From: an uncultured Candidatus Saccharibacteria bacterium
GTDB lineage: Bacteria; Patescibacteriota; Minisyncoccia; Phycocordibacterales; DATDWN01
Length of the DNA: 58,321 nt
Direction of reading: 5' to 3'
Assembly (NCBI GenBank): GCA_964596875.1
Contig: CAZQVT010000003.1
Coordinates: 1-58,321 of the forward strand
The notes under the pieces: model-generated
Database searches by the model: none
The model's input: the letters and a program-made list of their open reading frames with translations, nothing else
Told to the model about the DNA's origin: nothing
Program-made: the position numbers and the translations under genes
Shown: positions 3,420-43,805 of the stretch, in pieces
Layout: each line of letters opens with the position of its first letter
Position numbering within the stretch: the stretch's first letter is position 1

Positions 3420-5911
<2,492 letters not shown>

Positions 5912-5912
5912 A

Positions 5913-6503
5913 TTACTGAAGACGATTAAACAAGCTTTCTGAAATCTGGAAGGTCTTTGATAGTACACCCTGTGTCCAGTATATAGTAATTGTGACCCTC
6001 ACTTCTTCGTTTGCAACAATACTCTGAATCGAGATCGATCTTCTAAAACCTGAATCCGTCCAACCGTTTGTGTAACCATACAAACCTTTTGTTGCACTAT
6101 TCGTAACAGTATCTTGCAACAAGTTCCTACAGTTTGCACCATCTACCGCACAATCAGTTACGGTATTTGCACCAGAATCTATTCTACAAGTTTTTCCCGT
6201 ACCACAAGGACCACTTCCTGCCCCACCTGAAGACGTAACTATTCCGTCCAACCAAGTATTCGGACTCGGACTCACAGTATTTATATATGCTAAACCATTT
6301 TCATCTCTCTTATTTTTTATAAACTCCATTGCATCCTGTGTAAGATAAAACGCTACCATCTGGTTTTTAGCAGTTATTGATGATTTCAAACTGTTTTGCA
6401 CAGCAGTGAAACCGGCCAAAATAGAAAGCGACAAAATACTTACAGCAACAAGTGTCTCTACAAGAGTAAAACCTATTTTTTTGTTTTGGTTTTTATGATT
6501 CAT
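5913..6503 (-). CDS. Minor pilin (prepilin-type N-terminal cleavage/methylation domain)
   Basis: N-terminus NKKIG/FTLVETLVAVSILS (G-1, F+1, E+5). 196 aa. Confidence 0.75.
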   Translation of the reverse strand: MNHKNQNKKIGFTLVETLVAVSILSLSILAGFTAVQNSLKSSITAKNQMVAFYLTQDAMEFIKNKRDENGLAYINTVSPSPNTWLDGIVTSSGGAGSGPCGTGKTCRIDSGANTVTDCAVDGANCRNLLQDTVTNSATKGLYGYTNGWTDSGFRRSISIQSIVANEEVRVTITIYWTQGVLSKTFQISESLFNRLQ

Positions 6504-6505
6504 GG

Positions 6506-7078
6506 CTATTTTGTATCAAACTGTCTTTGAGATACCGTTGTCTGCAAAACAAAATTTGTCCTACTTGTTGCTTTTGTTCCAGCATATCCATCAATAACAA
6601 TTATCACTTTTGGCTGTGATAAGTCGAATGTACCAAGAGATGGTTCATATGGTGTGGATCCTAAAACACGAAATGTAACAGTTGATATATTTACATCAGT
6701 TCCAGTAACAAATATATCTGAGCCACCATTTACTGTTCTAGCTATCCTAGAACCAACCAATTTATATATTACTCTGTTGCCATTAAAGTCTGTTATCGCA
6801 ATAGATGATGCTCCGGAAGCACAATCTCTAGGTGATGTTGAAACACCCGCAGTAATATCACAATGATAATCCTTTCCAAAACGAATCGTTCTCGTCATGG
6901 CTTCCAATGATAGATTTAGATTATCCATCACAGAACGCATTGATTGAGACTTTCTATTTGAATCAAATACAGTGTATATGGAACTACTAACCATAAGCAT
7001 AATTACTGAAAAAATTGAAATCGAAACCATTATTTCAATTAAAGTAAAACCCTTTGTGCTTTTTTTACCATTCAGCAT
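6506..7078 (-). CDS. Minor pilin (prepilin-type N-terminus)
   Basis: N-terminus STKG/FTLIEIMVSISIFS. 190 aa. Confidence 0.75.
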   Translation of the reverse strand: MLNGKKSTKGFTLIEIMVSISIFSVIMLMVSSSIYTVFDSNRKSQSMRSVMDNLNLSLEAMTRTIRFGKDYHCDITAGVSTSPRDCASGASSIAITDFNGNRVIYKLVGSRIARTVNGGSDIFVTGTDVNISTVTFRVLGSTPYEPSLGTFDLSQPKVIIVIDGYAGTKATSRTNFVLQTTVSQRQFDTK

Positions 7079-7082
7079 GAAT

Positions 7083-7661
7083 TTATTGTATAGTTACCTG
7101 TCCAGTTACTTCAATATTAACATAAACACTCTTGTTTTTTGGCGAACTTAATTGAATCCTCGCCGAGTTAACAGTTCCGTAAGTATTTGTGCCACTGCTA
7201 TTTGTAAAATACATCCTAGCATCAGGACTTGGGCGCAAAAAAGTAATATTTACACCGGTCGCGCCCGATGGTACTGGCAAAGCTGGAGGACAAATAGTAG
7301 AATCACACACTCCTGAAATTATAACTCCGTTTCTTAATATTACTTGTTCTACAGACTCACCACTGTCATAAGCGTTATTATTATTCAAATCAACAAATAT
7401 ACGATAACTATTTGGCACACTACTATTTAAATAAATGCCATAAGCTGAACTAAATGTCCCACTGTTTACAGCAGTCTCTTTTACATTTATTCCGTAAGTT
7501 TGTGCTTGTCTAATAGCAATAGCCATCTCTTGTGCAGCACCAGATACCGCAAGATTGTCATTAAAACCTGTATAATTCCAAAAAACTACAGATAAAATAA
7601 CGCTAATTATAGAAACTGATACCAACAACTCTAATACTGTAAATGCTTTATTATGTTTCAT
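7083..7661 (-). CDS. Minor pilin (prepilin-type N-terminus, Ala at -1; FimT/GspH-like size)
   Basis: N-terminus HNKA/FTVLELLVSVSIISV. 192 aa. Confidence 0.7.
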   Translation of the reverse strand: MKHNKAFTVLELLVSVSIISVILSVVFWNYTGFNDNLAVSGAAQEMAIAIRQAQTYGINVKETAVNSGTFSSAYGIYLNSSVPNSYRIFVDLNNNNAYDSGESVEQVILRNGVIISGVCDSTICPPALPVPSGATGVNITFLRPSPDARMYFTNSSGTNTYGTVNSARIQLSSPKNKSVYVNIEVTGQVTIQ

Positions 7662-7664
7662 ATT

Positions 7665-8510
7665 TTAACTACCCAAAAAACTAGATATGTTCATTATGTC
7701 TACTCTACTAAGAAAAACTATAATCGTCCCTGCAATTAAAAATGGTGCAAAAGGCAATTCGGAACTCATGCCTATATTCTGTCCTCGCTTTAACACCTTG
7801 TAGTTTATTAAAAGTAAAATACTCCAAAGTGCTCCCATCCAAAAGCCCAAAACCACAGAACCCAAACCGTATGAAAAGCCAAGCAGAGCACCGATGCCAA
7901 AGGCAAGCTTAGCATCACCAAAACCCATCCATCTTCCGCTTGAAACTACCCACAAAAAAGCGAAAGGTAGAAATAGAAGCACTGGAGATAACAAATCAAA
8001 CCAATCTTCTTTTCCCAATTGAGGATATTTTAAATACATGAAGAACAATAATTTTAAAAGTCCGAGAAATATAAAAGTGTACACAAATGCATTTGGGATA
8101 ATTTTATGTCTGTAGTCATAAATAGTGATAACGATAAGTATACTGAAGACTACACAATAATATATTCCAAGTACCCAGGAAAATATTAAGCCATTTTGCA
8201 TACTACTAAAAACATTCCAAAGGTAGATTTGTCTTAAAACAACACCAACGAAAACAAAACCAGTAGTAATCTCCACCAATGGATACTGCCAAGATATTTT
8301 GCTCTTACATACGCGACATCTACCTTTCAGAAAAAGAAAACTAAAGACTGGCACTAGGTCGTACCATTTTAGAGGAGTGTCACAGTTAAAGCATTTTGAC
8401 CTACCAGATGAAACTGAAAGCCCACTGTTGTATCTCAAACCCAGCACATTAAGAAAACTGCCTATTAATGTTCCCAGAACAAACACTAGAATAAAAAATA
8501 ATAGGTTCAT
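7665..8510 (-). CDS. pilD: Prepilin peptidase (A24 family)
   Basis: 281 aa polytopic membrane protein. CxxC...CxxC (CFNCDTPL...CRVCKSK) and the GFGDAKL aspartyl motif. Confidence 0.9.
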   Translation of the reverse strand: MNLLFFILVFVLGTLIGSFLNVLGLRYNSGLSVSSGRSKCFNCDTPLKWYDLVPVFSFLFLKGRCRVCKSKISWQYPLVEITTGFVFVGVVLRQIYLWNVFSSMQNGLIFSWVLGIYYCVVFSILIVITIYDYRHKIIPNAFVYTFIFLGLLKLLFFMYLKYPQLGKEDWFDLLSPVLLFLPFAFLWVVSSGRWMGFGDAKLAFGIGALLGFSYGLGSVVLGFWMGALWSILLLINYKVLKRGQNIGMSSELPFAPFLIAGTIIVFLSRVDIMNISSFLGS

Positions 8511-8545
8511 ATTTTATCTCAATTTCAAAAAATCAATTTTGGACC

Positions 8546-9010
8546 TTAACTACAGTTGTATGGATTTGCAGTCTGACAAACCCACAAACCTCCAGACTGT
8601 CCTGAAGGTGCTACATCACAAGTTCTTGTAGCAGCTGTATAGTCTACGCACCAATATCTACCGTCACTCAACTGAGCCCATGCTTTCCATCCTGCCTGCC
8701 CACTTCCGCCACAGTTACCTGTCGTTCTGTTTTTTGTTGCTGAAACCACCATAGCGTCAATATTTGCATTTGGAGTTTGGTTAGTACAAATACCTGTCCA
8801 TGACCCACCAGTTACAATATCATAGTATATCTGTGCAATCGGTATTATTGCATTCAATTGAGATTTCGTCTTTGCGTCTTGTGCTTTTACACTAGAATTC
8901 CTCAAAGATGCCAGGACTACAGAAGAAAGAACACCTATGATTGCAATAACAACTAGCAACTCGATAAGTGTAAAACCTCTACCAAAAATATTCCCCGAAT
9001 TTTTAATCAT
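8546..9010 (-). CDS. Type IV pilin (paralogue 2)
   Basis: GRG/FTLIELLVVIAIIGVLSSVVLASL. C-terminal Cys pairs form a disulfide-bonded D-region-like tail. 154 aa. Confidence 0.85.
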   Translation of the reverse strand: MIKNSGNIFGRGFTLIELLVVIAIIGVLSSVVLASLRNSSVKAQDAKTKSQLNAIIPIAQIYYDIVTGGSWTGICTNQTPNANIDAMVVSATKNRTTGNCGGSGQAGWKAWAQLSDGRYWCVDYTAATRTCDVAPSGQSGGLWVCQTANPYNCS

Positions 9011-9086
9011 AAGTAATTGTAATAATAATAACTAAGTATATTATAGTCTATTTTAAATATATTTCACCCTAGATATGTTGATATCG

Positions 9087-9119
9087 TGGTTTTTCTTTTG
9101 TTACAAAAGAAAAACCACC
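9087..9119 (-). terminator. Perfect 15-bp A/U-rich stem-loop downstream of the first pilin gene (possible attenuator)
   Basis: GTGGTTTTTCTTTTG-TTA-CAAAAGAAAAACCAC. No clean U-tract follows on either strand, so terminator function is uncertain. Confidence 0.35.
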
Positions 9120-9157
9120 CAAAGGGTAGTTTTTCAAGAAGAAATTTAGGTTAGTGA

Positions 9158-9610
9158 CTATCCGCAAGTTACGTCTGTAGTTGCACTAAGTGCATTGGCA
9201 GTTGTAGTTGCAGTACCTGTACTATCTACACAGTAACCAACTGATGAAACAGTTTTAAGAGGAGCCATGATCGCCCAACCAGCCGCAGTATCGTTACATG
9301 TTACAGTTGTAGAAGTCCATATAGCGTCATTACCGATTGTTGCAGATGCACCTGCTGCTGCAGCAGCTGCAGCTGTAGCCTTTGCAATATTACCATCAGC
9401 ACAAACGTTAGCGTATGTACCACTATCATTATCGTATCTCAACTCAGCTTGTGCTCTTGTACCGTTTAGGTTTGATTTGATTGCTGCATCAGCACCTTTT
9501 GATCTAGCAGTGTTTAGAGAAGCCAATACAACTGATGACAATATACCGATAATCGCGATAACAACTAGCAACTCGATAAGTGTAAAACCTCTTTTAAGAC
9601 TATTTTTCAT
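9158..9610 (-). CDS. pilA: Type IV pilin (probable major pilin, paralogue 1)
   Basis: KRG/FTLIELLVVIAIIGILSSVVLASLNTARSKG. Internal poly-Ala and Cys pairs. 150 aa. Preceded by a 274-nt non-coding gap, suggesting its own promoter. Confidence 0.85.
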   Translation of the reverse strand: MKNSLKRGFTLIELLVVIAIIGILSSVVLASLNTARSKGADAAIKSNLNGTRAQAELRYDNDSGTYANVCADGNIAKATAAAAAAAGASATIGNDAIWTSTTVTCNDTAAGWAIMAPLKTVSSVGYCVDSTGTATTTANALSATTDVTCG

Positions 9611-9800
9611 ATTTAAATTAATTAATATTATTTTACTAAATTCTTATAATGTAATTTTATTGTTTTCGACCACCCGGTCTCTTGTCGAGACTTCCCCGTT
9701 TTATCTAAACGAATAAGTATATTATACAACTCTATTTAGACTATTAAAGTGGGGCTGTGGATAATAACTTGTACAATTTGTGCGGAATTCGATGTTGAGA

Positions 9801-17724: not shown

Positions 17725-17727
17725 ATG

Positions 17728-17817
17728 CGGAGCCGGATGGATTCGAACCATCGGTACCTTATTAAAGGGTACACCTCTTTAGCAAAGAGGCACGTTAGAC
17801 CACTCTGACACGGCTCC
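17728..17817 (-). tRNA. tRNA-Ser(GCU)
   Basis: Hand-folded cloverleaf: acceptor GGAGCCG/CGGCTCC, anticodon stem CCTCT/AGAGG with loop TTGCTAA, long variable arm, T-arm GATGG-TTCGAAT-CCATC, discriminator G. Confidence 0.9.
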
Positions 17818-17880: not shown

Positions 17881-17967
17881 GGATAGGTGGATGAGTGGCT
17901 TAAATCAACGGTTTACTAAACCGTCGTAGGGTAAAACCTACCGAGAGTTCGAATCTCTCCCTATCCG
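17881..17967 (+). tRNA. Class II (Ser-type) tRNA with anticodon loop UUACUAA, read as tRNA-Ser(ACU)
   Basis: Acceptor GGATAGG/CCTATCC, D-arm GAT..ATC, anticodon stem ACGGT/ACCGT with 7-nt loop TTACTAA, long variable arm CGTAGGGTAAAACCTACC, T-arm GAGAG-TTCGAAT-CTCTC, discriminator G. Confidence 0.8.
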
Positions 17968-17973
17968 CAATAA

Positions 17974-24646: not shown

Positions 24647-25807
24647 ATGAAAAAATACATCGATAAATTTTCTAAATCTTTAAAAGATTTAAATAAAAAA
24701 TACAGTAAAAAAACAAGTAAAAATTCAAAGGTTTTTGCATACTTCAAAAATTCTACCTATTCAAGAATGTCTACAAAAGACCAGACATTCTTTGTAAAAA
24801 GACTTTCATTTTTGATCAAAGCAGGTATACCAGTTTTGGACAGTCTACAGATGATAAAAGACCAGACAAAAAAGAAAAGTTATGCAAAAGTTCTAGACAA
24901 AATAATCGCTGATGTTGCAAACGGTCAAAACCTTTCCAACAGTCTCGCAAAGTTCCCAAGCATGTTTAGTGAGTTTTCTATAAATATTATTAGTTTCGGT
25001 GAGTCGAGTGGAATACTTTCTGAAAACCTAGACTACTTAGCAGACGAACTCAAAAAGAAAAACGCACTTAGAAAAAAAGTTGTGGGTGCATTTGTTTACC
25101 CTATCGTAGTAACTGTAGCAACTTTTGGGATTACAGGTTTTCTTATGGTCTATCTTTTCCCTAAAATAATGCCAGTTTTTCAAAGTCTGCACATGAAACT
25201 TCCGGTTTCAACTAGAATAGTAATATTTTTAAGTAACTTTATTAGATTTAATAGTTTATATATTTTCCTAGGTCTTGCACTCTTCATATCAGGTTTTATA
25301 TATCTAATGAAAAAAAGTTTACTCTTTAGATACTATTTTGATAAATCAATTCTTAAAATACCGGCTATAGGAAACATTGTTCGAGATTACAATCTCGCAA
25401 ACTCTACCAGAACAATAGGCCTACTACTAAAAGGTGGCGTCACAGTTAGTGAAGCGATCCCTATAGCAGAAAAAACTAGTAGCAACCTTATATACAAGCA
25501 GGAATTCAAAAGGCTTACAGAAAACGCAAACCGTGGAGAGAAAATTTCGGTCTATCTTGGATCTAGACCTGACTTGTTTCCAGAAATTTTATCCCAGATA
25601 GTTTCTGTTGGAGAAAGAAGTGGAAACCTTTCAAACTCCCTAATATATCTTTCTGAACTATACGAAACTCAAGTTGACGACTTCACGAAAAACTTGGGAA
25701 ACCTTATCGAACCAGCACTTATGATTTTCATGGGAATTCTAGTAGGTTTTATTGCCATATCTATAATCACTCCTATATATAGTATTACCCAAAACCTACA
25801 TGGATAG
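24647..25807 (+). CDS. Second GspF/PilC-family platform protein
   Basis: Start taken at the ATG (MKKYIDKF) 1 nt after the ATPase stop; the track's 24632 start is TTG. T2SF-like repeats and 3 hydrophobic blocks. Confidence 0.85.
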   Translation: MKKYIDKFSKSLKDLNKKYSKKTSKNSKVFAYFKNSTYSRMSTKDQTFFVKRLSFLIKAGIPVLDSLQMIKDQTKKKSYAKVLDKIIADVANGQNLSNSLAKFPSMFSEFSINIISFGESSGILSENLDYLADELKKKNALRKKVVGAFVYPIVVTVATFGITGFLMVYLFPKIMPVFQSLHMKLPVSTRIVIFLSNFIRFNSLYIFLGLALFISGFIYLMKKSLLFRYYFDKSILKIPAIGNIVRDYNLANSTRTIGLLLKGGVTVSEAIPIAEKTSSNLIYKQEFKRLTENANRGEKISVYLGSRPDLFPEILSQIVSVGERSGNLSNSLIYLSELYETQVDDFTKNLGNLIEPALMIFMGILVGFIAISIITPIYSITQNLHG

Positions 25808-26270
25808 TTTAAAGTTCAAAAAAAATAATGGCTTTACTCTAATAGAAGTTTTGATAACTCTAGGAATACTGGCAATAGTTGGCACAACATTTTCGATAAT
25901 TGATATAAACAATTTTAGAGGAGACTCTTTCAGATCTGAAGTAAGCACTATTGGCACTGCGCTTCAAACCGCCAGAGCAAACTCGTTTAACAATATTAAC
26001 CAGAAAAAACACGGTGTGGCATTTAACCCGAGTGGCATAAATGGATACGTAATATTTGAGGGGAATTCTTATGCTGACAGAGATACAACAAAAGACGTAG
26101 TCATAAACCCCACATACACTGTTGTGTTTGCTGTATCTGCACCAACAGAAATTACTTTTGACCAACTTAGTGGCAATGCAAACTATAACGGCAATATTGT
26201 TTTAACCGACCCACAAAGAGGCGTTACCGCAATAATACAAACAAACAATGAAGGCAAAATCTCTTGGTAA
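25800..26270 (+). CDS. Pseudopilin (prepilin-type N-terminus; GspH/FimT-like size)
   Basis: KKNNG/FTLIEVLITLGILAIVG. Start ATG overlaps the upstream stop (ATGGATAG). Confidence 0.75.
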   Translation: MDSLKFKKNNGFTLIEVLITLGILAIVGTTFSIIDINNFRGDSFRSEVSTIGTALQTARANSFNNINQKKHGVAFNPSGINGYVIFEGNSYADRDTTKDVVINPTYTVVFAVSAPTEITFDQLSGNANYNGNIVLTDPQRGVTAIIQTNNEGKISW

Positions 26271-27786
26271 AAAACAAGGTTTTTCTACTTTGGAATTAAT
26301 GATTGCTTTGGCGCTCATTTCGATTGTCTTAGTTGGTGCCATAGGCGGAAACTTTATTGCACAATACTGGTCTTTGGTAAGTCAGACATCAAATGAGGGT
26401 TTATACAAAACGAAAACAAAACTAGAAGACCTGCGATCCCTTATAAAACAGGATTTTTACAGTGCTGTTTCTAGTGCCCCCATAGCATCTGTTGACCCAA
26501 CTGACCCAGCAGATGCCTCATGTATAAACGGAGGTCTTTGTTATTTTATAGAGAGCAATATAACCGACATATCTTCTTGCTCGAAGTTTGTCGAATCAAA
26601 AGTAAAGTGGCAAGTTCAAAACTATCCCGAAACCACGACTTCCCTTTTCACAAACCTAACTAACTCACAAGAAATTATAAATCGTGGTGGTGACTGTCTT
26701 TTGGATGTGCCAAACGGCAACTGGGAAACAAACAACCCAGCTAGTGTTGGACTACAAACTTACACCGGAGGAAAGCAGTTTACCAGCGTAGATGTTCTAC
26801 ACAAAAAAATATATGCGACAACAAACACCTTTCCCTCTTTTTTAATCTTTGATGAACCAAGTACAGTTGGAAACAATCCAACTTTAGTAAGTAGTTATGA
26901 TTTAAAACTCAATTCTTTTTCTCTAAAAATAAATGCCGTTGATGTAGAAGAGGATCTAAGTACCGGAAGGAAATATGCTTTTGTTGCAGTGGCGACCACC
27001 ACAAAACAACTTGCAGTTTTTGATATCACCGACAGCAGTTCCCCAGACTTGAAAGCGCAGATAACTCTACAAAACGTAGACCAGTTTGGTTCATACCCAG
27101 AAGGATATCGTCTGTATGTTTACGGACAAAGGCTTTACATAACCGTCCGAGAAACAACCGGAAATGAGTTTCATATTTTTGATATCAGCACACCAACATT
27201 GCCCACAGAAATTGGTAATGGTTTTGAATTAAACAGAACTGTAAATGACCTAGTTGTGAGAGATCAAAAAATAAATGGCGCCACAAAAAGACTTGTGTTT
27301 CTCGCTTCAGATTCAAACGTAAAAGAGCTTGGAGTTTTGGATGTTACCGGAGATGCGATATCTGAAATTGCCTCAGTTGACCTACCTGGAATATATGACG
27401 GTCTTTCACTAAACCTATTAGGTAGAAATTTGTATTTTGGAAGACAGAGTAATCCATCTGGACCAGAGTTGTTTGTATTTGATATTACAAACCCAAGTGT
27501 TTCCCTACCAATAAAAAATTCTGGCGAAGCGGGTACAAATATTACCTCAATAAAAGTTTCTGGAAAATATGCGTTTATTGGCACAAATAAAGTCGGTGAA
27601 GAATTTCAGGTATGGGATAGTGAGTTTTCAAACTGGAGTGCAACAACTGCGAACGTAGGTAGATTTAAATTTTACTCTTTCACAAATCTTGCACCGCTTG
27701 GTTTTGATATAGATAGCAACTGGATCTATGCAGTAAGTAACCAGAATACGACAGACAAACTGCAAGTCTTATACACGACACCGTAA
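26248..27786 (+). CDS. Large pseudopilin with C-terminal LVIVD-like beta-propeller
   Basis: 512 aa. KKQG/FSTLELMIALALISIVL, followed by repeated blades QLAVFDITDSSSP, EFHIFDISTPTLP, ELGVLDVTGD, ELFVFDITNPS, EEFQVWDSEF. Confidence 0.75.
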   Translation: MKAKSLGKKQGFSTLELMIALALISIVLVGAIGGNFIAQYWSLVSQTSNEGLYKTKTKLEDLRSLIKQDFYSAVSSAPIASVDPTDPADASCINGGLCYFIESNITDISSCSKFVESKVKWQVQNYPETTTSLFTNLTNSQEIINRGGDCLLDVPNGNWETNNPASVGLQTYTGGKQFTSVDVLHKKIYATTNTFPSFLIFDEPSTVGNNPTLVSSYDLKLNSFSLKINAVDVEEDLSTGRKYAFVAVATTTKQLAVFDITDSSSPDLKAQITLQNVDQFGSYPEGYRLYVYGQRLYITVRETTGNEFHIFDISTPTLPTEIGNGFELNRTVNDLVVRDQKINGATKRLVFLASDSNVKELGVLDVTGDAISEIASVDLPGIYDGLSLNLLGRNLYFGRQSNPSGPELFVFDITNPSVSLPIKNSGEAGTNITSIKVSGKYAFIGTNKVGEEFQVWDSEFSNWSATTANVGRFKFYSFTNLAPLGFDIDSNWIYAVSNQNTTDKLQVLYTTP

Positions 27787-28259
27787 TGAAAAATATAAAT
27801 ACTAAAAAAGGGTTTACTTTGGTAGAAACAATGATATATATTGCCTTATTTGGCATTGTTATTTATGGCGCTTTTGTTGGTGCGTATAATCTTTTAGAAG
27901 GAGGAAAAAGAAATATAAACACTGCCAAAATTGAAGAAGAAGGAACTTTTATAAATAGAAAAATAAACTGGGCATTAACAGGAGCAACAAATGTTACTGT
28001 AACTTCTGGGGGAACAAAAATAACAATTACCAGACCTGATTTAGGACCACAGAGTCCCCTTGTCATTTCAGAAACTGGCAGCAACATGACTATCACTCGT
28101 GGCACTGGTAGTGAAACAGAGTTAAACAATGACCGATTCCACATAAGCGGAACTCAGTTTGTTTACACAGCCGGTGCAGGAGGTAGACCCCCATCAATCT
28201 CTGCAACATTCAAGGTTGAGGAAAAGGTATTTAGTTTCAGAAATTACCTGAGACAATAG
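27786..28259 (+). CDS. Pseudopilin (prepilin-type N-terminus)
   Basis: TKKG/FTLVETMIYIALFGIV. Start overlaps the upstream stop (TAATG). 157 aa. Confidence 0.75.
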   Translation: MKNINTKKGFTLVETMIYIALFGIVIYGAFVGAYNLLEGGKRNINTAKIEEEGTFINRKINWALTGATNVTVTSGGTKITITRPDLGPQSPLVISETGSNMTITRGTGSETELNNDRFHISGTQFVYTAGAGGRPPSISATFKVEEKVFSFRNYLRQ

Positions 28260-37389: not shown

Positions 37390-37968
37390 CTACAGATGAC
37401 TTGCTTTAAGTGCCTTGTTTATTATACCAACTAAAACTATTTTATTTTCTTTTGTACTTAAAAGTACTTCCTTGTCCCAGTTTTCTCCTAAAAAGATAGA
37501 GGTGTTTTCATCTTTTACTACGTACCCAAGTTTGTCTAAAACTCTAATAACCATTAAGACTTCGAACTCCGAGGTTAAATCTTCCTCCATCTCTTTCAAA
37601 AATTGTAGTCCATTTTTCACTACAGAAAATAATTCTTTTTGAGGTAACTCTCCCTGTATCATTTGCATCAGAACAAAGCCTATTTGCGACAAGACTTTAT
37701 GTGCATAAACAGGTGAGTCAAAATAAAATGAACCGTTTGCAACAGCATTAGTTATTTTCCAACCACCCTTACCTTTTACAGCCGAAACTGAAATGTTTGC
37801 ATACTCTTGTAATGCGGGACGCAGTTTAGAGACATACAACCTCGCTGAACGAGCAGAGGCAATGATTAGCCCCAAGTCTGAAGTCAAAATGTGCAACAAA
37901 ACATTCGCCTCTCCAAAAGGTGTTCTTTTCAAAATAATCCCTTCGGTAGTGTAGATGTGATACGACAT
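37390..37968 (-). CDS. recO: DNA repair protein RecO (divergent)
   Basis: Start moved to the ATG (MSYHIYTTEGIILKRTPFGEANVLLHILT...). N-terminal OB-fold sequence is RecO-like. The track start is GTG. Confidence 0.7.
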   Translation of the reverse strand: MSYHIYTTEGIILKRTPFGEANVLLHILTSDLGLIIASARSARLYVSKLRPALQEYANISVSAVKGKGGWKITNAVANGSFYFDSPVYAHKVLSQIGFVLMQMIQGELPQKELFSVVKNGLQFLKEMEEDLTSEFEVLMVIRVLDKLGYVVKDENTSIFLGENWDKEVLLSTKENKIVLVGIINKALKASHL

Positions 37969-38036
37969 TGTTTTCTTATGAGAGTAGCGAATTTGAAACA
38001 CAAGAAGTGCCCTTGTGGTGCGACATTCAAAAATAT

Positions 38037-41000
38037 TTATAGCACAACAGAAAATGAAGTCTCTCCGTCACCAAGTTCTACAACATAAGTTTGTTTATCT
38101 TCTGAAAAACTTACTTCTGAAACGCCAGTTGGTGTTTTTATCATTTCTGCATACTCTTCAATTATTTGTTTTTTGTCAGATGTAACAACAAGTTTTATAA
38201 CTTCATTAGGATTTAATTTTTCTGTTTTTCTAGCATCTTGAACAGCCCGAATAATATCTCGGGCCACACCTTCTTTTACCAGTTCCTCCGTCAAAGTAGT
38301 ATCGAGTTTTAATTCTGTTCCAACTTTAACTTCTTTTACATTTACTTCATCAGCAATAATAAGTAGAAGGTCCTGAGAAAAATCTTTTGCAACTATAAGT
38401 GATGAAAGTGGTTGGCGAACCTTATGTCCAGATTTTTGTCTAAGTTCCAAACTCGCAGTTACCACCTCTCTAACATTTTTCATGTTTTCCAAAAGTTCCC
38501 CGTCTACACTTCCCGCTTCTGGCCAAGTTTCCAAATGCACACTTTCCTGCATTCCGTTTGTTTTCATTTTTTGAAACACCTCCTCAGCAAAGAAGGGTGT
38601 AAATGGCGCCATGTATTTTGCAAGTTCAATAAGCACAAAAGAAGTTGTAGCCAATGCCTCGTTCTTTTCATCCACATTTTCCGACTTAAACCTGTCTCTT
38701 GAACGACGAACATACCAAGTAGAAAAGTCATTTACAAAGTCTCGCAAGGGTCTCGCCGACTCGAATACTTGGTATTTCTCCAAAGATTTTGTTCCACCCA
38801 GGATTAACTCATTTAATCTAGATAGAATCCACTTATCCAAAACGTTTTTACTTGTATTATTTGGTGAAGTTTTATCGTCTTTATATAGTTCGTAAAACGC
38901 TACAATGTTTAGAAGTGGATTGAAAACTTTTTTCACTATCTCATCTACAGTTTTTTCATCAAAGTTTTTAGAATCCCCAGGTTGGTTTACCATGTACATC
39001 CAGAGCCGCAAAGCATCCACGCCGTATTTGTTCATGAGTTCCCATGGGTCTAAAATGTTTCCAACAGATTTAGACATTTTTTTGCCATCCTTATCTAGAA
39101 TATGTCCCAGACAAATAACATTTTTATATGCTCGTCCCTTGCCCATAAGTACACCGATAGCGTGCAGTGTATAAAACCATCCGCGTGTTTGATCTATTGC
39201 TTCCGAAATAAAATCTGCAGGATAAGCAAGTTCTTCTTTATTCCAAGGATAATGATCCTGTGCAAAAGGCATCGAACCAGAGTCAAACCAAACATCCATA
39301 ACTTCTTTTACACGAGTTAACTTGTTTCCATTCTCATTCACAAGTTCGACGCCATCTATATATGGTTTATGCAAGTCAGTTTCATATTTTTCGTTGTGTG
39401 GAAGTTCTACAAAATCCAGTTCGTGCACCTCAGCGTTTTTTATAAATTCCTCTTTTGCATAGCCAAAATCTATAGTTTGTTTTCTGTTATAACCCATCCC
39501 CGCAGACTCTAGGGCCCAAGATGTATGTTCATGAGTAACAAAAAGTATTACTTCATTAGTATTTTTACTTTCTGTCTCATACAGAAACTCACCCGTTCTA
39601 ACTTTTACATCCGCCAGGTTTTCTGCTCCGCCCGCACGAACATCAAAAATATCTTCATCGCTTTTTACAAGTTCGTGATACACATCTACAGATTTTCCAC
39701 TCAGGCTTCCTAGATCATGCTCACCAAGTCTTTCATCAAAAGTCAGCCTATCTTCACCTAGATCGAGTTCCTTCAAAACTATTTGTGCAGTTTCTTTTGT
39801 TCGTACAAAAGGTGATGCGATTATTTTTGTAATACCTTTTTCTTTTAAGATTTTTACTGAATCCAAAACCTGTTGTTTGCCTTTTTCTGTTAGGTGAAAA
39901 TCATCATCTTTTTTGCAACTCAAGATGTTTGCAACATTGTGCCCTCCTTCACCATGACGGATTATGAAGTATTTATTTGTAGATTTCTTAGAATATTTTT
40001 TCAAATCTTCCAAACCGCCTATTACTTTTCTGTTGCCATTTTCATCCTGCCAAATAGGTAGAGGAGTTCCCCAATATCTTTCACGACTTATTGCCCAGTC
40101 TTTTATCTCTCTTAACCATTCTCCAAAACGACCCTCTTTTATATGCGCTGGTTCCCAACCTATATTTTCATTTTCTTTTACTAACGTATCGCGCAAACTA
40201 GACATTTTTATATACCAAGAATCTCTTGCGTAGTAGATAAGAGGAGTTTTACATCTCCAACAATGTGGATATGAGTGCTCGTATTTTTCTTTTTTGAAAA
40301 GCAGTCCCTTGTGAGCCAAATCTTTTATAATATCCACCGCGACCTCTTCATCTTTTACAAATCGCCCAGATAGAAAGTCCATTTCATCTAGAAATGTTCC
40401 ATCGTCTTTTACCAAATGATATTTTGGAAGGCCTATTTGTGTCCCCAAAACGAAGTCGTCCTGTCCGTACATTACAGCAGTATGAACAATACCAGTACCA
40501 TCTGTAGTTGTAACGAAGTCTGCTTCGTATACCTTGTAAGCTTTTTGAAAACTTTCTGGATTTTTATCAGCAAATTTTTGAGAAAGATATGGGTACAGTG
40601 GTTCATATTCCATACCAACCATTTCGCTACCTTTGTGCTCTGCAACAACTTCATAAGGTTCTGTAATAACTGAAAGTCTCTCTTTCGCCAAAACAAATAT
40701 ATCGTCCCCAACTTTTGCTTCAACATAATCTACATCCTTACCTACTGCCAACCCTACATTTCCAGGAAGAGTCCACGGAGTTGTAGTCCAAGCCAAAAAG
40801 TATGCGTTTGGAAATGCTTTTATTTTAAACTTTGCAGTTACAGAAAGATCCTTATCATCTTGATACCCTTGTGCTAGTTCATGTGACGAAAGAGCAGTTC
40901 CACATCGCGGACACCAAGGTAAAACTTTATAGTCTTTATACAACAAACCTTTTTCTTCTACTGTTTTTAAAATATTCCAAACAGACTCAATAAAAGGAGT

Positions 41001-41456
41001 ATCGAAAGTATAGTATGCGTCTTTTTTATCTACCCAGTATCCTATTCTGTCGGTAAATTTTTCCCATTCTTCAATGTATTCAAATACACTGTCTTTACAC
41101 TGTTTGTTAAAGGCCTCAACACCATATTGTTCTATTTCTTTTTTAGATTTAAGTCCCAACTTTTTTTCTATCTGAAGTTCTACAGGTAAACCATGTGTGT
41201 CCCAACCAGCCTTTCTTCGCACATAAAAGCCCTGCATTGTTTTAAAACGCGGAATAATATCCTTGAAAACTCTGGCTGCCAAATGGTGGAGTGCAGGTCT
41301 CGCGTTTGCTGTTGGAGGACCTTCATAGAAAACAAACTTCCCTCGCGGAGAATCTTTTTTCAAAGTTTTTTTAAAAACTTCTTTTTCCTGCCAAAACTTT
41401 AGAACTTCTTCTTCTTTTAGAGCAGTTTGTGATTTTTGTACTTCTTTCTCGTTCAT
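38037..41456 (-). CDS. ileS: Isoleucine--tRNA ligase (Thermus/type-2-like) with internal histidine-phosphatase domain insertion
   Basis: Start taken at the ATG (MNEKEV) behind GAGGA; the track start at 41468 is TTG. [8 protein letters not shown], CP1 editing [10 protein letters not shown]...[42 protein letters not shown]. RHG...[10 protein letters not shown]...THEH insert at ~39515-39974. Confidence 0.93.
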   Translation of the reverse strand: [1139 protein letters not shown]

Positions 41457-41477
41457 AATATTCCTCAATATTAATTT

Positions 41478-41704: not shown

Positions 41705-42130
41705 CTACCTGCCACATGCAGACCCTCTGTAACAATTATTACCAGATTTAAAAATTTCAAAACTCTTAAATGGAGTCAGTCTTACCATATCTACAACTGC
41801 TGTCAAAAAAAGCAGAGTAACGAAAATTAAAAAAATATTTTTAACTAACCCATAATTCTTTGTATCTAACCATTTCTGAAATCGTTTTGCGAAAAGGATA
41901 AAAATTATTACAGAGGCTATACCAAAAGGAAAAACTAACATAGAGTATAGAAAACTAACCATTCCGAACGGGACAAAAAGACCTATAAAACCAGCAAATT
42001 TACTCCAAAATGGAATAAAAACTCCATCTACCAAATAAATAGAGTCTAAATTTATATAAAGAATAGTTAGTAAAACCCACCAGAACCAAATGTTTGATAA
42101 AATTTTACTTACTGTTGTTTTTTCGTTCAT
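41705..42130 (-). CDS. Small polytopic membrane protein, unknown function
   Basis: 141-aa ORF with about 4 hydrophobic segments. No motif recognised. Confidence 0.55.
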   Translation of the reverse strand: MNEKTTVSKILSNIWFWWVLLTILYINLDSIYLVDGVFIPFWSKFAGFIGLFVPFGMVSFLYSMLVFPFGIASVIIFILFAKRFQKWLDTKNYGLVKNIFLIFVTLLFLTAVVDMVRLTPFKSFEIFKSGNNCYRGSACGR

Positions 42131-42140
42131 AAATATATTA

Positions 42141-43805
42141 TTACATTTTTTCTGGAATCTTTATGCCTAATAAGGTGAGCCCGTTTGTCATTATCTGAAC
42201 AAAACTTTCTGTAATCGCCAGGCGATATGGTGAAGAAATATCTGTTTCATCTATTATTTTTGAATGAGCGTAGAAACTATTGAACTCCCCAGCAAGTTCT
42301 GTAAGGTATGTAGTTATATAGTGCGGTGCGTATTCCAAACCTGCTCTTTCTACCACAGATGGAAATCTTTCCAACTCTCTTTCTAGGTTTGTAGTTTCCC
42401 AGTTTTCAGGCATAACTTTTGAGACAGACACTATACTGTGCGCTTTTTTCAAAATTGAGTTTGCTCGAACAGTCGCATACTGAAGATAAGGACCAGAATC
42501 CCCTTCAAAAGAAATCGATTTGTCAAAATCAAAAATAATATCACCTCCAATAGACTGTCGTAGTATTGTGTATTTGATTGCACCTATAGAAACGATTTCA
42601 GCAACTAGCCCCTTCTCACTCTCGTGAACCTCAGAGTCTTTCATTTTTTCTAATATTTTTTCTTTTACGGCATGTATCAGACTTTCAGCTGTTATTATGT
42701 TTCCTGTTCTTGATGACATCTTTCCTTCTGGCAAACGCAACATGCCATGCGAGATATGTTTTGTTTTCTTTGCCAGGTCGGGGAAAACTAGAGACATCGC
42801 TTTTAGCAAAACTTTAAAGTATTCGTTTATTTCGTTTCCAGTTACGACAATAGACACATCATACGGATACGTATCGTATTTAAGTTTAGCGAGCCCCAAT
42901 TCCTTGGCTTCATATGTAGGCAAACCTTCTTTGTTTATAAAAACTCTAGTGTGAAGTTTTTTATCGTAGTTTTCGCCCTTAAAAACTACTGCACCCTCAC
43001 TTTTTTCAAAAATACTACCTACATTTTTTTCTACAGTTTCTTTTCCAAAATCCGCCACCTCACTTTCAAAAAAGTAGTGATCAAACTTTGTGCCAAGTAT
43101 TTTATACATCACCTCAAAATATAAAAGTGATTTTCTTCTACCATCTTCATACAAGTCGTTTATTTCTGCATCTGTGTGGTCGTATATTTTTTTGTTTATA
43201 TCAATAATCTCTTTTTTTGCCTCTTCGTTTTCAGTATATGCCTTATGACCCTCTGCATATGCCTGCATAAGGTCTGTGCCTTTTTTCATAGACCAAACAG
43301 CCTTGGCCACATGAAGCCCTACATCTCCCTGGTAGTTTGCTCTTTGTATTTCTGCTCCATTTGCCTCCATTACTCTAGCCAAGGACTCACCTATTACGTT
43401 TGGCATCAAATGCCCTATATGAAATTCCTTGAATGGGTTTGGGTCAGTGTATTCAATAATAACCTTTTGGCTATTTAGATTTTTATTTTTTCCAAAACTT
43501 CCACCTTCAGAAATTATTTTTGAAATATTTTCTGAATAATATTTTTTATCAAAAAAGAAGTTTATAAAACCTGGAGCAGCAATAGTTGTGCCGAAAATAT
43601 TTCGAGCCTCGAGTTTGCTTTTTATTTCACCGGCAAGATACATTGGCAGCTGATCCAACTCTTTTGCATACGACATTGCAACCACAGTAGAATAATCCCC
43701 CTTTTCTTTATGTGTTGGCACAGTCAAAACCACAACTGGGGTTTCTACTCCAAGTTCGTTTAGTATGTCCTCAATAGCCTTTACTATTTTTTCCTTCATT
43801 GCCAC
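42141..43805 (-). CDS. argS: Arginine--tRNA ligase
   Basis: 554 aa. NPFKEFHIGHL (HIGH region) and the C-terminal DALR-type anticodon-binding domain ending in ...KM. Confidence 0.93.
   Translation of the reverse strand: MAMKEKIVKAIEDILNELGVETPVVVLTVPTHKEKGDYSTVVAMSYAKELDQLPMYLAGEIKSKLEARNIFGTTIAAPGFINFFFDKKYYSENISKIISEGGSFGKNKNLNSQKVIIEYTDPNPFKEFHIGHLMPNVIGESLARVMEANGAEIQRANYQGDVGLHVAKAVWSMKKGTDLMQAYAEGHKAYTENEEAKKEIIDINKKIYDHTDAEINDLYEDGRRKSLLYFEVMYKILGTKFDHYFFESEVADFGKETVEKNVGSIFEKSEGAVVFKGENYDKKLHTRVFINKEGLPTYEAKELGLAKLKYDTYPYDVSIVVTGNEINEYFKVLLKAMSLVFPDLAKKTKHISHGMLRLPEGKMSSRTGNIITAESLIHAVKEKILEKMKDSEVHESEKGLVAEIVSIGAIKYTILRQSIGGDIIFDFDKSISFEGDSGPYLQYATVRANSILKKAHSIVSVSKVMPENWETTNLERELERFPSVVERAGLEYAPHYITTYLTELAGEFNSFYAHSKIIDETDISSPYRLAITESFVQIMTNGLTLLGIKIPEKM

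Follow-up and report, generated by a model that had tools for sequence, protein, structure and literature searches.

A histidine-phosphatase domain nested in the isoleucyl-tRNA synthetase of Patescibacteria and its free-standing ortholog beside ileS

Why would an aminoacyl-tRNA synthetase (aaRS) carry a phosphatase within its own chain? This question is raised by ileS, the gene for isoleucyl-tRNA synthetase (IleRS), on a stretch of 58,321 nucleotides (nt) from an uncultured Candidatus Saccharibacteria bacterium (GenBank assembly GCA_964596875.1, contig CAZQVT010000003.1), hereafter called the window. The aaRSs are among the best-studied enzymes, and extra catalytic domains such as the editing domains, YbaK and AlaX each revealed a layer of translation quality control. 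Aminoacylation is not known to involve a phosphomonoester. A preliminary description of the window, made from its letters alone, had proposed that a histidine-phosphatase domain is inserted in this IleRS and that the product is bifunctional or phosphatase-regulated. Our results suggest, with a probability of about 60%, that ileS encodes a two-enzyme polypeptide in which a predicted active phosphomonoesterase is tied to IleRS. Our confidence is very high for the structural and evolutionary facts taken alone, namely an intact IleRS, an intact and autonomously folding phosphatase, and an evolutionary tie between the two.

The synthetase and the domain nested in it

The ileS gene is a single uninterrupted open reading frame (ORF) of 1143 amino acids (aa) with a TTG start; the database version of the protein (P0009, 1139 aa) begins at the ATG at 41454-41456, four codons into the ORF. 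Pfam recognized tRNA-synt_1 in two pieces, Anticodon_1, DUF5915 and a His_Phos_1 domain that splits tRNA-synt_1, as had been expected (coordinates in Table 1). The whole protein scored 879.7 bits on the NCBIfam profile for isoleucine--tRNA ligase (TIGR00392, cutoff 621.4). Bacterial IleRSs of type 2 are eukaryote-like and mupirocin-tolerant, and several observations place the window protein among them. Its best PDB matches were Priestia megaterium IleRS2 (E = 1e-248) and Thermus thermophilus IleRS (1e-233), whereas IleRS1 structures matched at 1e-105 or weaker, and the LHKPYID motif of type-2 enzymes is present. Its second-closest resemblance in NCBIfam was to the MupA/MupB type, which likewise indicates a type-2 IleRS. 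The acquired mupirocin-resistance profiles themselves were not reached (NF000257 and NF000258, 790 and 797 bits against 1900), and neither was ileS_w_GNAT (NF040702, 321.9 against 1999 bits); a Pfam scan of the protein gave no GNAT match.

Outside the insert, the protein is collinear with P. megaterium IleRS2 (8c8u, 8c8v, 8c8w) and T. thermophilus IleRS (1ile) at E about 1e-248, and shares their domain order: Rossmann, connective peptide (CP) core, CP1 editing, CP2, CP3, Rossmann, anticodon, C-terminal. Under published domain definitions (PMC7191050; PMC7955072), residues 1-493 comprise the first Rossmann half, the CP core, the CP1 editing domain, CP2, the CP2-3 linker and the first CP3 strand, and residues 696-1143 comprise the rest of CP3, the second Rossmann half (DVWFDSGS, KMSKS), the anticodon-binding domain and the DUF5915 C-terminal domain. 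A phmmer alignment paired query residues 10-493 with residues 6-478 of 8c8w and query residues 696-1050 with residues 485-850, so that about 202 insert residues stand for about 6 residues in the Zn-knuckle loop of CP3. The insert is nested between WAISRERYWGTPLPIW and DLHKPYID, the part of CP3 that immediately follows it; it consists of a basic linker (KKSTNKY), the histidine-phosphatase domain and a return connector (FVELPHNEKY). The span first proposed for the insertion, 39378-40010 (aa 487-697), brackets the insert at 39384-39989 correctly.

The synthetase around the insert appears complete. The CP1 editing motifs WTTTPWTLP and GTGIVH were invariant in a 75-sequence alignment, and KMSKS is present. 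The HIGH signature is non-canonical: the window has ALHH, and ALHH or GIHH occupies this position in 104 of 119 clade members. According to its PDB title, 8c8w is a mupirocin hyper-resistant HIGH motif mutant of P. megaterium IleRS2, and as such an active enzyme; its signature is GVHH. ALHH and GVHH differ in letters but are alike in the exchange of the canonical first His and third Gly. By analogy, the whole clade of the window may be naturally hyper-resistant to mupirocin-type inhibitors. A model of the whole protein reached a mean predicted local distance difference test (pLDDT) of 87.8 and a predicted template modelling score (pTM) of 0.79, with 89-96 for the insert blocks. The modelled IleRS core fitted solved IleRSs with target TM scores (TMt) from 0.81 (8c8v) to 0.91 (1ile), and the insert modelled alone reached pLDDT 94.2 and pTM 0.91. 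The structure predictions bear on a check that the preliminary description had suggested: the insert is, as modelled, an autonomously folding domain with an alpha/beta fold like that of the cofactor-dependent phosphoglycerate mutases (dPGM), and the IleRS core around it is intact.

The His_Phos_1 match covers profile positions 2-171 of 194. In branch 1 of the histidine phosphatase superfamily the catalytic set consists of a nucleophilic His in an RHG motif, two Arg and a second His at the phosphate, and an acidic proton donor. All of these are present: R504, H505 and G506 form RHG, R556 lies within SPFVRTKET, E583 within DERLGE and H646 within VTHEH. Profile score, RHG motif, phosphate-pocket residues and predicted fold all assign the insert to branch 1. 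The motifs quoted in the preliminary description were all recovered at the positions given there, and its view that the domain has not decayed was borne out by the conservation of RHG, the Arg in SPxxR, the Glu and the distal His. That the segment might be an ordinary connective-peptide variant devoid of catalytic residues is contradicted by the alignment to 8c8w and by the conserved His and Arg.

An origin of the insert by chance, or as an assembly chimera, a pseudogene or an intein-like selfish insertion with no host function, is practically excluded. The frame is continuous and the GC (guanine plus cytosine) content is even through the ileS region, as had been noted; the identical architecture occurs in hundreds of independent assemblies; and we looked for repeats or mobile-element signatures at the insert borders and found none. 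The insert contains only His_Phos_1, with no intein or endonuclease features.

Which phosphatase is it? Foldseek placed the model of the insert close to PhoE, iPSP and Rv2419c (probability 1.00, TM about 0.75). The nearest solved folds were the phosphoserine phosphatase of H. thermophilus, PhoE/YhfR, mycobacterial hydrolases, Rv2419c and a riboflavin-pathway HFP, all at TM about 0.75. The insert shares with these compact phosphatases (PhoE/YhfR, 1h2e and 1ebb; iPSP1, 4ij5 and 4ij6; Rv2419c, 4qih; HFP, 9mmh) a common fold, a length class of about 200 aa and the catalytic residues, at 18-26% identity. Those, however, are metabolic enzymes that stand alone and act on known small substrates; the insert occurs within an aaRS, and its free counterpart is encoded next to one. 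We considered a moonlighting dPGM, from which a reduced genome would obtain one step of glycolysis. The lowest E-value of the domain in NCBIfam is indeed for an archaeal-type dPGM, but the score is far below the cutoff (NF038349, dPGM_arch, 73.5 against 225), as is that for pgm_1 (TIGR01258, 27.9 against 81.7). The longer mutases of the dPGM and bisphosphoglycerate mutase (BPGM) types also fit the fold less well (TMt 0.52-0.62) than the short phosphatases do (about 0.75), and the operon context is translation, not glycolysis. We therefore consider a glycolytic role extremely improbable; by its modelled fold, the insert comes closest to the compact enzymes of the PhoE and phosphoserine-phosphatase kinds. 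Curated cutoffs were likewise missed for the alpha-ribazole phosphatase CobC (TIGR03162, 56.1 against 162.9), the phosphoserine phosphatase PspA (NF045917, 47.1 against 350) and SixA (TIGR00249, 36.0 against 74.5), and these identities were rejected together with dPGM. A PADLOC search for defence systems gave no match for the insert and only a marginal one for its free-standing form (E = 4.6e-4), and we rejected a defence or antitoxin assignment by this route.

The position of the insert qualifies one part of the preliminary description, which had located it in the catalytic core at the Zn-knuckle peptide of Thermus-type IleRS. The domain is indeed nested at the Zn-knuckle peptide of the Thermus and Priestia (type-2) enzymes, but this belongs to the peripheral CP3 and not to the Rossmann core proper. 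According to published domain maps, CP3 follows CP2 and precedes the second Rossmann half, at residues 473-534 in C. albicans IleRS and 459-526 in the yeast enzyme. In T. thermophilus it bears a Zn motif, and the three solved types of IleRS differ in its topology (PMC7191050). The CP2-3 linker that comes before it (yeast ARDWNVSRNRYWG; window counterpart IKDWAISRERYWG) lines the binding pocket of reveromycin A, which mimics the CCA end of tRNA (PMC7955072). Together, these maps place the insert in a known variable peripheral subdomain, starting right after a tRNA-end-binding element.

In the clade of the window the four cysteines of the Zn knuckle are lost and replaced by D/E/N-G. This raises the possibility that the insert is a non-catalytic module, either a structural stand-in for the knuckle or a sensor of a phospho-ligand that modulates IleRS allosterically without turnover. 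Conserved junction residues (N498, F686, P690, H691 and N692, highly conserved in 119 full-length relatives) suggest a fixed packing and would fit such a module. Other fused IleRS lineages, however, retain the CxxC...CxxC knuckle and still carry the insert, which indicates that the phosphatase is not simply a substitute for it. Moreover, the nucleophilic His, both Arg, the distal His and the acidic Glu are conserved over 139 copies that include free enzymes, which is a signature of catalysis. We find a non-catalytic module very unlikely.

Breadth of the fused form and the free gene beside ileS

How widespread is this architecture? The 120 best representatives of the whole protein at the 90% cluster level were 57-84% identical to it and 1107-1184 aa long, and all of them contained PF00133 and PF00300. 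Their source names include Parcubacteria, Zambryskibacteria, Minisyncoccia, Pacebacteria and Patescibacteria. The N-terminal junction pattern KKS[GTS]NKYF matched at least 322 species-representative genomes, with Nomurabacteria, Campbellbacteria, Wolfebacteria and Paceibacterota among their names. The insert alone was also searched exhaustively with phmmer against 1.84 billion representatives; of the 3864 matches at E≤1e-3, 413 reached E≤1e-10. The best 150 include many proteins of IleRS length, matched near residues 480-720. One apparent stand-alone homolog (P0001) was discarded, its contig showing an IleRS fragmented by frameshifts. The fused architecture is thus clade-wide in Parcubacteria/Paceibacteria and not rare, and the survey of related IleRSs suggested earlier found it in each of the 120 best representatives.

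Sequence conservation separates the catalytic residues from the rest of the domain. Among the 119 full-length relatives, identity to the window copy was 46% for the insert and 74% for the IleRS core; R504, H505, G506, S552, R556 and H646 were conserved in 100%, E583 in 99% and N511 in 98%. We then used a broader set of 139 copies that includes distant IleRS lineages, copies embedded in valyl-tRNA synthetase (ValRS) and free-standing proteins. Here R504, H505, S552, R556 and H646 were present in every copy, E583 was Glu or Asp in 135 and N511 was kept in 126. The insert drifts and its catalytic residues are nonetheless fixed, which indicates purifying selection specifically on the catalytic residues. 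These invariant residues, the autonomous fold and the free ortholog described below strongly support the earlier proposal of a bifunctional enzyme.

The preliminary description also knew of no IleRS with this architecture. We found no account of an aaRS with a histidine-phosphatase domain, or of the association of argS, phosphatase and ileS described below, in the full-text literature searched, which does not cover every subscription journal; this negative is absence of evidence. The remark thus stands for the literature, but the architecture itself is clade-wide and has gone unremarked in public annotations, where its entries bear unspecific titles, among them 'class I tRNA ligase family protein' and 'isoleucyl-tRNA synthetase'. 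The parts are known families (IleRS2 and His_Phos_1); with the same caveat of absence of evidence, their combination appears undescribed.

A related enzyme exists outside the synthetase. About thirty short proteins of about 190-205 aa that start with Met scored 130-215 bits on a hidden Markov model (HMM) of the insert, compared with 83-108 bits for the copies embedded in ValRS. A profile of this free form matched at least 2241 cluster representatives, all of them single-domain PF00300 proteins with Patescibacteria names; they are annotated as 'histidine phosphatase family protein', 'broad specificity phosphatase PhoE' or 'putative phosphoglycerate mutase'. The free orthologs (e.g., P0227, P0288 and P0375) resemble the insert in belonging to the same clade, with up to 72% identity, and in sharing the pre-strand 'N-K-Y' motif, the catalytic residues and the neighbourhood. 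They differ in being separate polypeptides of 189 aa, in a conserved 'S.WPE' and in the absence of the 'PLPHN' return connector. The 'S.WPE' motif lies shortly past RHG...N in the free forms and is missing from nested copies, which have 'F.PLPHN' instead; judging by sequence, these motifs may mark surfaces for docking and for covalent attachment, respectively.

The free gene is found next to ileS. In all four long contigs examined, the order was argS, phosphatase, an insert-less ileS (818-987 aa) and recO, on one strand and separated by gaps of a few bases or by overlaps. We fetched 80 metagenome loci with the free-form profile and counted the 47 free-form loci that had at least 1.5 kb of downstream sequence. 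An ileS start was found within 100 nt downstream in 39 of these and within 1.5 kb in 3 more (42/47). On inspection, three of the five apparent exceptions had a divergent IleRS ORF directly downstream, which brings the count to 45/47. Conversely, all 80 genome loci with the fused form lacked a free phosphatase within 4 kb, and argS directly preceded ileS. Fused and free states are therefore mutually exclusive. The window keeps the order of argS, ileS and a recO-like gene, and the slot of the free phosphatase is taken by a 141-aa ORF for a multi-pass membrane protein; the insert HMM gave no match to this ORF, which is not a phosphatase remnant. Two side observations concern the free loci. In one (L083), a CYTH (triphosphate-tunnel) gene lies between the phosphatase and ileS (6570-7160), and in two genomes RVT_1 genes occur near the operon (L083 2890-3663; L085 10716-12078), one of them with a bAvd accessory gene; they look like diversity-generating retroelements.

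A neighbour-joining (NJ) tree of the phosphatase domains grouped the IleRS-associated copies, fused and free, in one clade, which excluded generic copies, those of 'site 2' and those embedded in ValRS. Several fused lineages branched from among free ones, and the closest pair of a fused and a free copy (L152/L151) was 72% identical. Fusion and adjacency can therefore be seen as alternative states of a single association, and lineages have switched between them more than once. An NJ tree of the IleRSs also interleaved fused and free lineages, though it is too crude for counting events. The phosphatase may thus derive from, or be interchangeable with, the gene of about 189 aa upstream of ileS in sister Patescibacteria lineages; in the lineage of the window it sits inside ileS and the free copy has been lost.

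Nested copies at other sites and features of the window

Copies of His_Phos_1 in the representatives were mapped with the insert HMM and Pfam scans, and the site of the window was the commonest among them. Further sites are used. An IleRS of 1087 aa (P0250) carries copies past the second Zn knuckle and past the 'HYPF' loop, and a third begins C-terminally (KFLFIRHGEGEHN). Another IleRS (P0223) has His_Phos_1 at the 'HYPF' site and a ValRS (P0246) has it at the equivalent site. A complete ValRS of 1538 aa on a 47.8-kb contig (P0268, at L166 703-5319) contains two nested domains, one past 'PQWF' and one past 'WGHQIPVWY', the equivalent of the site in the window; between them, a segment of ~280 aa (about aa 630-915) has no assignment, and a gene for a PemK-family toxin lies immediately upstream. 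A ValRS fragment (P0129) shows four copies, to be taken with caution since its contigs are of low coverage and about 3.9 kb. In one IleRS (P0212, 1066 aa), His_Phos_1 at the site of the window is accompanied by an in-frame IS200-like Y1_Tnp (PF01797, aa 340-461) within the CP1 region and by a GNAT acetyltransferase past 'HFPF'. The nesting of enzyme domains seems to have a hotspot in the IleRS of the Candidate Phyla Radiation (CPR). Finally, in one metagenome locus (L118 3381-5567) a stopless argS runs in frame into a phosphatase (...SPQQM followed by KRIELNNKYYIMRHG...), giving a 729-aa ORF with ileS directly after it; this ArgRS-phosphatase represents a third kind of fusion or else results from a sequencing error. 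Partners other than class Ia aaRSs were not seen among the best 150 relatives of the insert.

Two NCBIfam entries offer partial precedents. NF040702, 'isoleucine--tRNA ligase, N-acetyltransferase domain-containing', is a precedent for an IleRS with an extra enzyme domain, although the domain differs; NF005567, 'bifunctional RNase H/acid phosphatase', is a precedent for His_Phos_1 fused to an enzyme of nucleic-acid ends, with RNase H as a different partner. In both the domains are appended, whereas the phosphatase of the window is nested within the catalytic domain.

Elsewhere in the window we noted two divergent tRNA-Ser genes of type II (long arm), 64 nt apart. One has the ordinary anticodon GCT; the loop of the other, TTACTAA, gives the anticodon ACT, whose A34 is uncommon in bacteria. 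Small ORFs with pilin-like N-termini (K/R-GFTLIE...) form two clusters. From these sequences, the clusters look like type IV pilus or pseudopilin genes, typical of episymbiotic Patescibacteria.

Table 1. Coordinates of ileS, its parts and other features in the window
Feature	Position	Strand	Evidence or conservation
ileS, type-2 IleRS with nested phosphatase	38037..41468	-	ORF, Pfam, TIGR00392, fold search
IleRS N-terminal part, aa 1-493	39990..41468	-	Pfam, phmmer alignment, conservation
Non-canonical HIGH signature 'ALHH'	41283..41294	-	alignment
CP2-3 linker WAISRERYWG	40068-40097	-	
Insert, aa 494-695	39384..39989	-	phmmer alignment, conservation, insert-only model
His_Phos_1 (PF00300), aa 501-670	39459..39968	-	Pfam, E=6e-24, 85.2 bits against a cutoff of 21.7
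RHG motif: R504, nucleophile H505, G506	39951..39959	-	R and H in 139/139 copies
R556, second phosphate-binding Arg	39801..39803	-	139/139 copies
E583, presumed general acid	39720..39722	-	127 E and 8 D among 139 copies
H646, distal catalytic His	39531..39533	-	139/139 copies
IleRS C-terminal part, aa 696-1143	38037..39383	-	Pfam, phmmer alignment
KMSKS	39066-39080	-	kept in 116/119 clade members
recO-like gene, downstream member of the conserved order	37390..38001	-	phmmer match to ORFs with Pfam RecO_N/RecO_C
141-aa multi-pass membrane-protein ORF in the argS-ileS slot	41705..42130	-	
argS, upstream member of the conserved order	42141..43805	-	
tRNA-Ser gene	17881-17968	+	
tRNA-Ser gene	17727-17817	-	
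Small-ORF cluster with pilin-like N-termini	5456-9643	-	
Small-ORF cluster with pilin-like N-termini	25767-28256	+	

Possible function of the phosphatase in the synthetase

What could the phosphatase do there? By the chemistry of its superfamily, H505 would attack a phosphomonoester to form a phospho-histidine intermediate, with the phosphate held by R504, R556, H646 and N511 and the leaving group protonated by E583. The fusion and the conserved adjacency suggest a role for the enzyme in the process that IleRS serves and, in a wider sense, in that of the class Ia synthetases, given that related domains are nested in ValRS and that one is fused to ArgRS. Nesting in hundreds of species, an adjacent gene in sister lineages and recurrence in ValRS together constitute Rosetta-stone evidence for a common function.

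Alternatively, the domain could be a hitch-hiking housekeeping enzyme: a general small-molecule phosphatase (PhoE-like, phosphoserine or metabolite-repair) that moved, through a local rearrangement, from a neighbouring gene into a permissive surface loop and stays active because the free copy was lost, with no link to aminoacylation beyond co-expression. Several observations favour this and weigh against a dedicated role in the synthetase. The structural neighbours of the insert are broad or small-molecule phosphatases. Its surface is acidic (net charge about -7, isoelectric point 5.6), which does not favour broad RNA binding, and the 'cap' that would confer specificity is its least conserved region. 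Several insertion sites, tandem copies and a separate protein are all tolerated, which speaks against a hand-off with the synthetic site that would need a fixed geometry, and CP3 is already structurally variable among IleRSs (PMC7191050). If one copy of an essential activity is enough, fused and free states should exclude each other, as they do, and a gene order inherited within the one phylum may account for part of the adjacency. On the other hand, the free gene adjoins ileS in 45 of 47 loci although the phosphatases of these loci are only about 48% identical to each other, and the switch between fused and free states occurred more than once. The independent nesting of more distant His_Phos_1 domains in ValRS, the fusion of one to ArgRS and the absence of partners outside the class Ia aaRSs among the best 150 relatives also count against a hitch-hiker. 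On balance we regard a hitch-hiking enzyme as possible but rather unlikely, and we retain the two-enzyme polypeptide, with its phosphatase tied to IleRS, as our preferred reading.

As for the substrate of this two-enzyme polypeptide, our preferred guess is that phosphate is removed from a nucleotide-type ligand at the synthetase, for example a nucleotide product or a tRNA whose acceptor end is blocked by a 2'/3'-phosphate. Two observations count toward such a substrate: all partners are enzymes with binding sites for ATP/AMP and for the 3' end of tRNA, and the insertion comes right after the linker of the CCA pocket. In addition, pyrophosphorylation that blocks the CCA end of tRNAs is known from toxin systems (bioRxiv 10.1101/2021.04.30.441581; PMC11559606). 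A more specific proposal makes the phosphatase a partner dedicated to the class Ia synthetases (IleRS, ValRS and ArgRS): it would act on the tRNA acceptor end that is presented to the synthetase and remove a 2'/3'-phosphate, or a (pyro)phosphate derived from toxSAS-type toxins or tRNases. This version is doubtful, and we put it forward tentatively. If true, a synthetase would heal and charge its own tRNA, a built-in end repair or antitoxin activity that would be unprecedented.

With a free ortholog beside ileS, further copies in ValRS and an occurrence in at least 322 species, the nested phosphatase amounts to a functional association with good support, for which the free and fused forms serve as natural controls. 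Identifying the substrate could reveal tRNA-end repair, nucleotide clearing or a regulatory link in the translation of Patescibacteria; alternatively, it could show that reduced genomes park housekeeping enzymes inside essential proteins.

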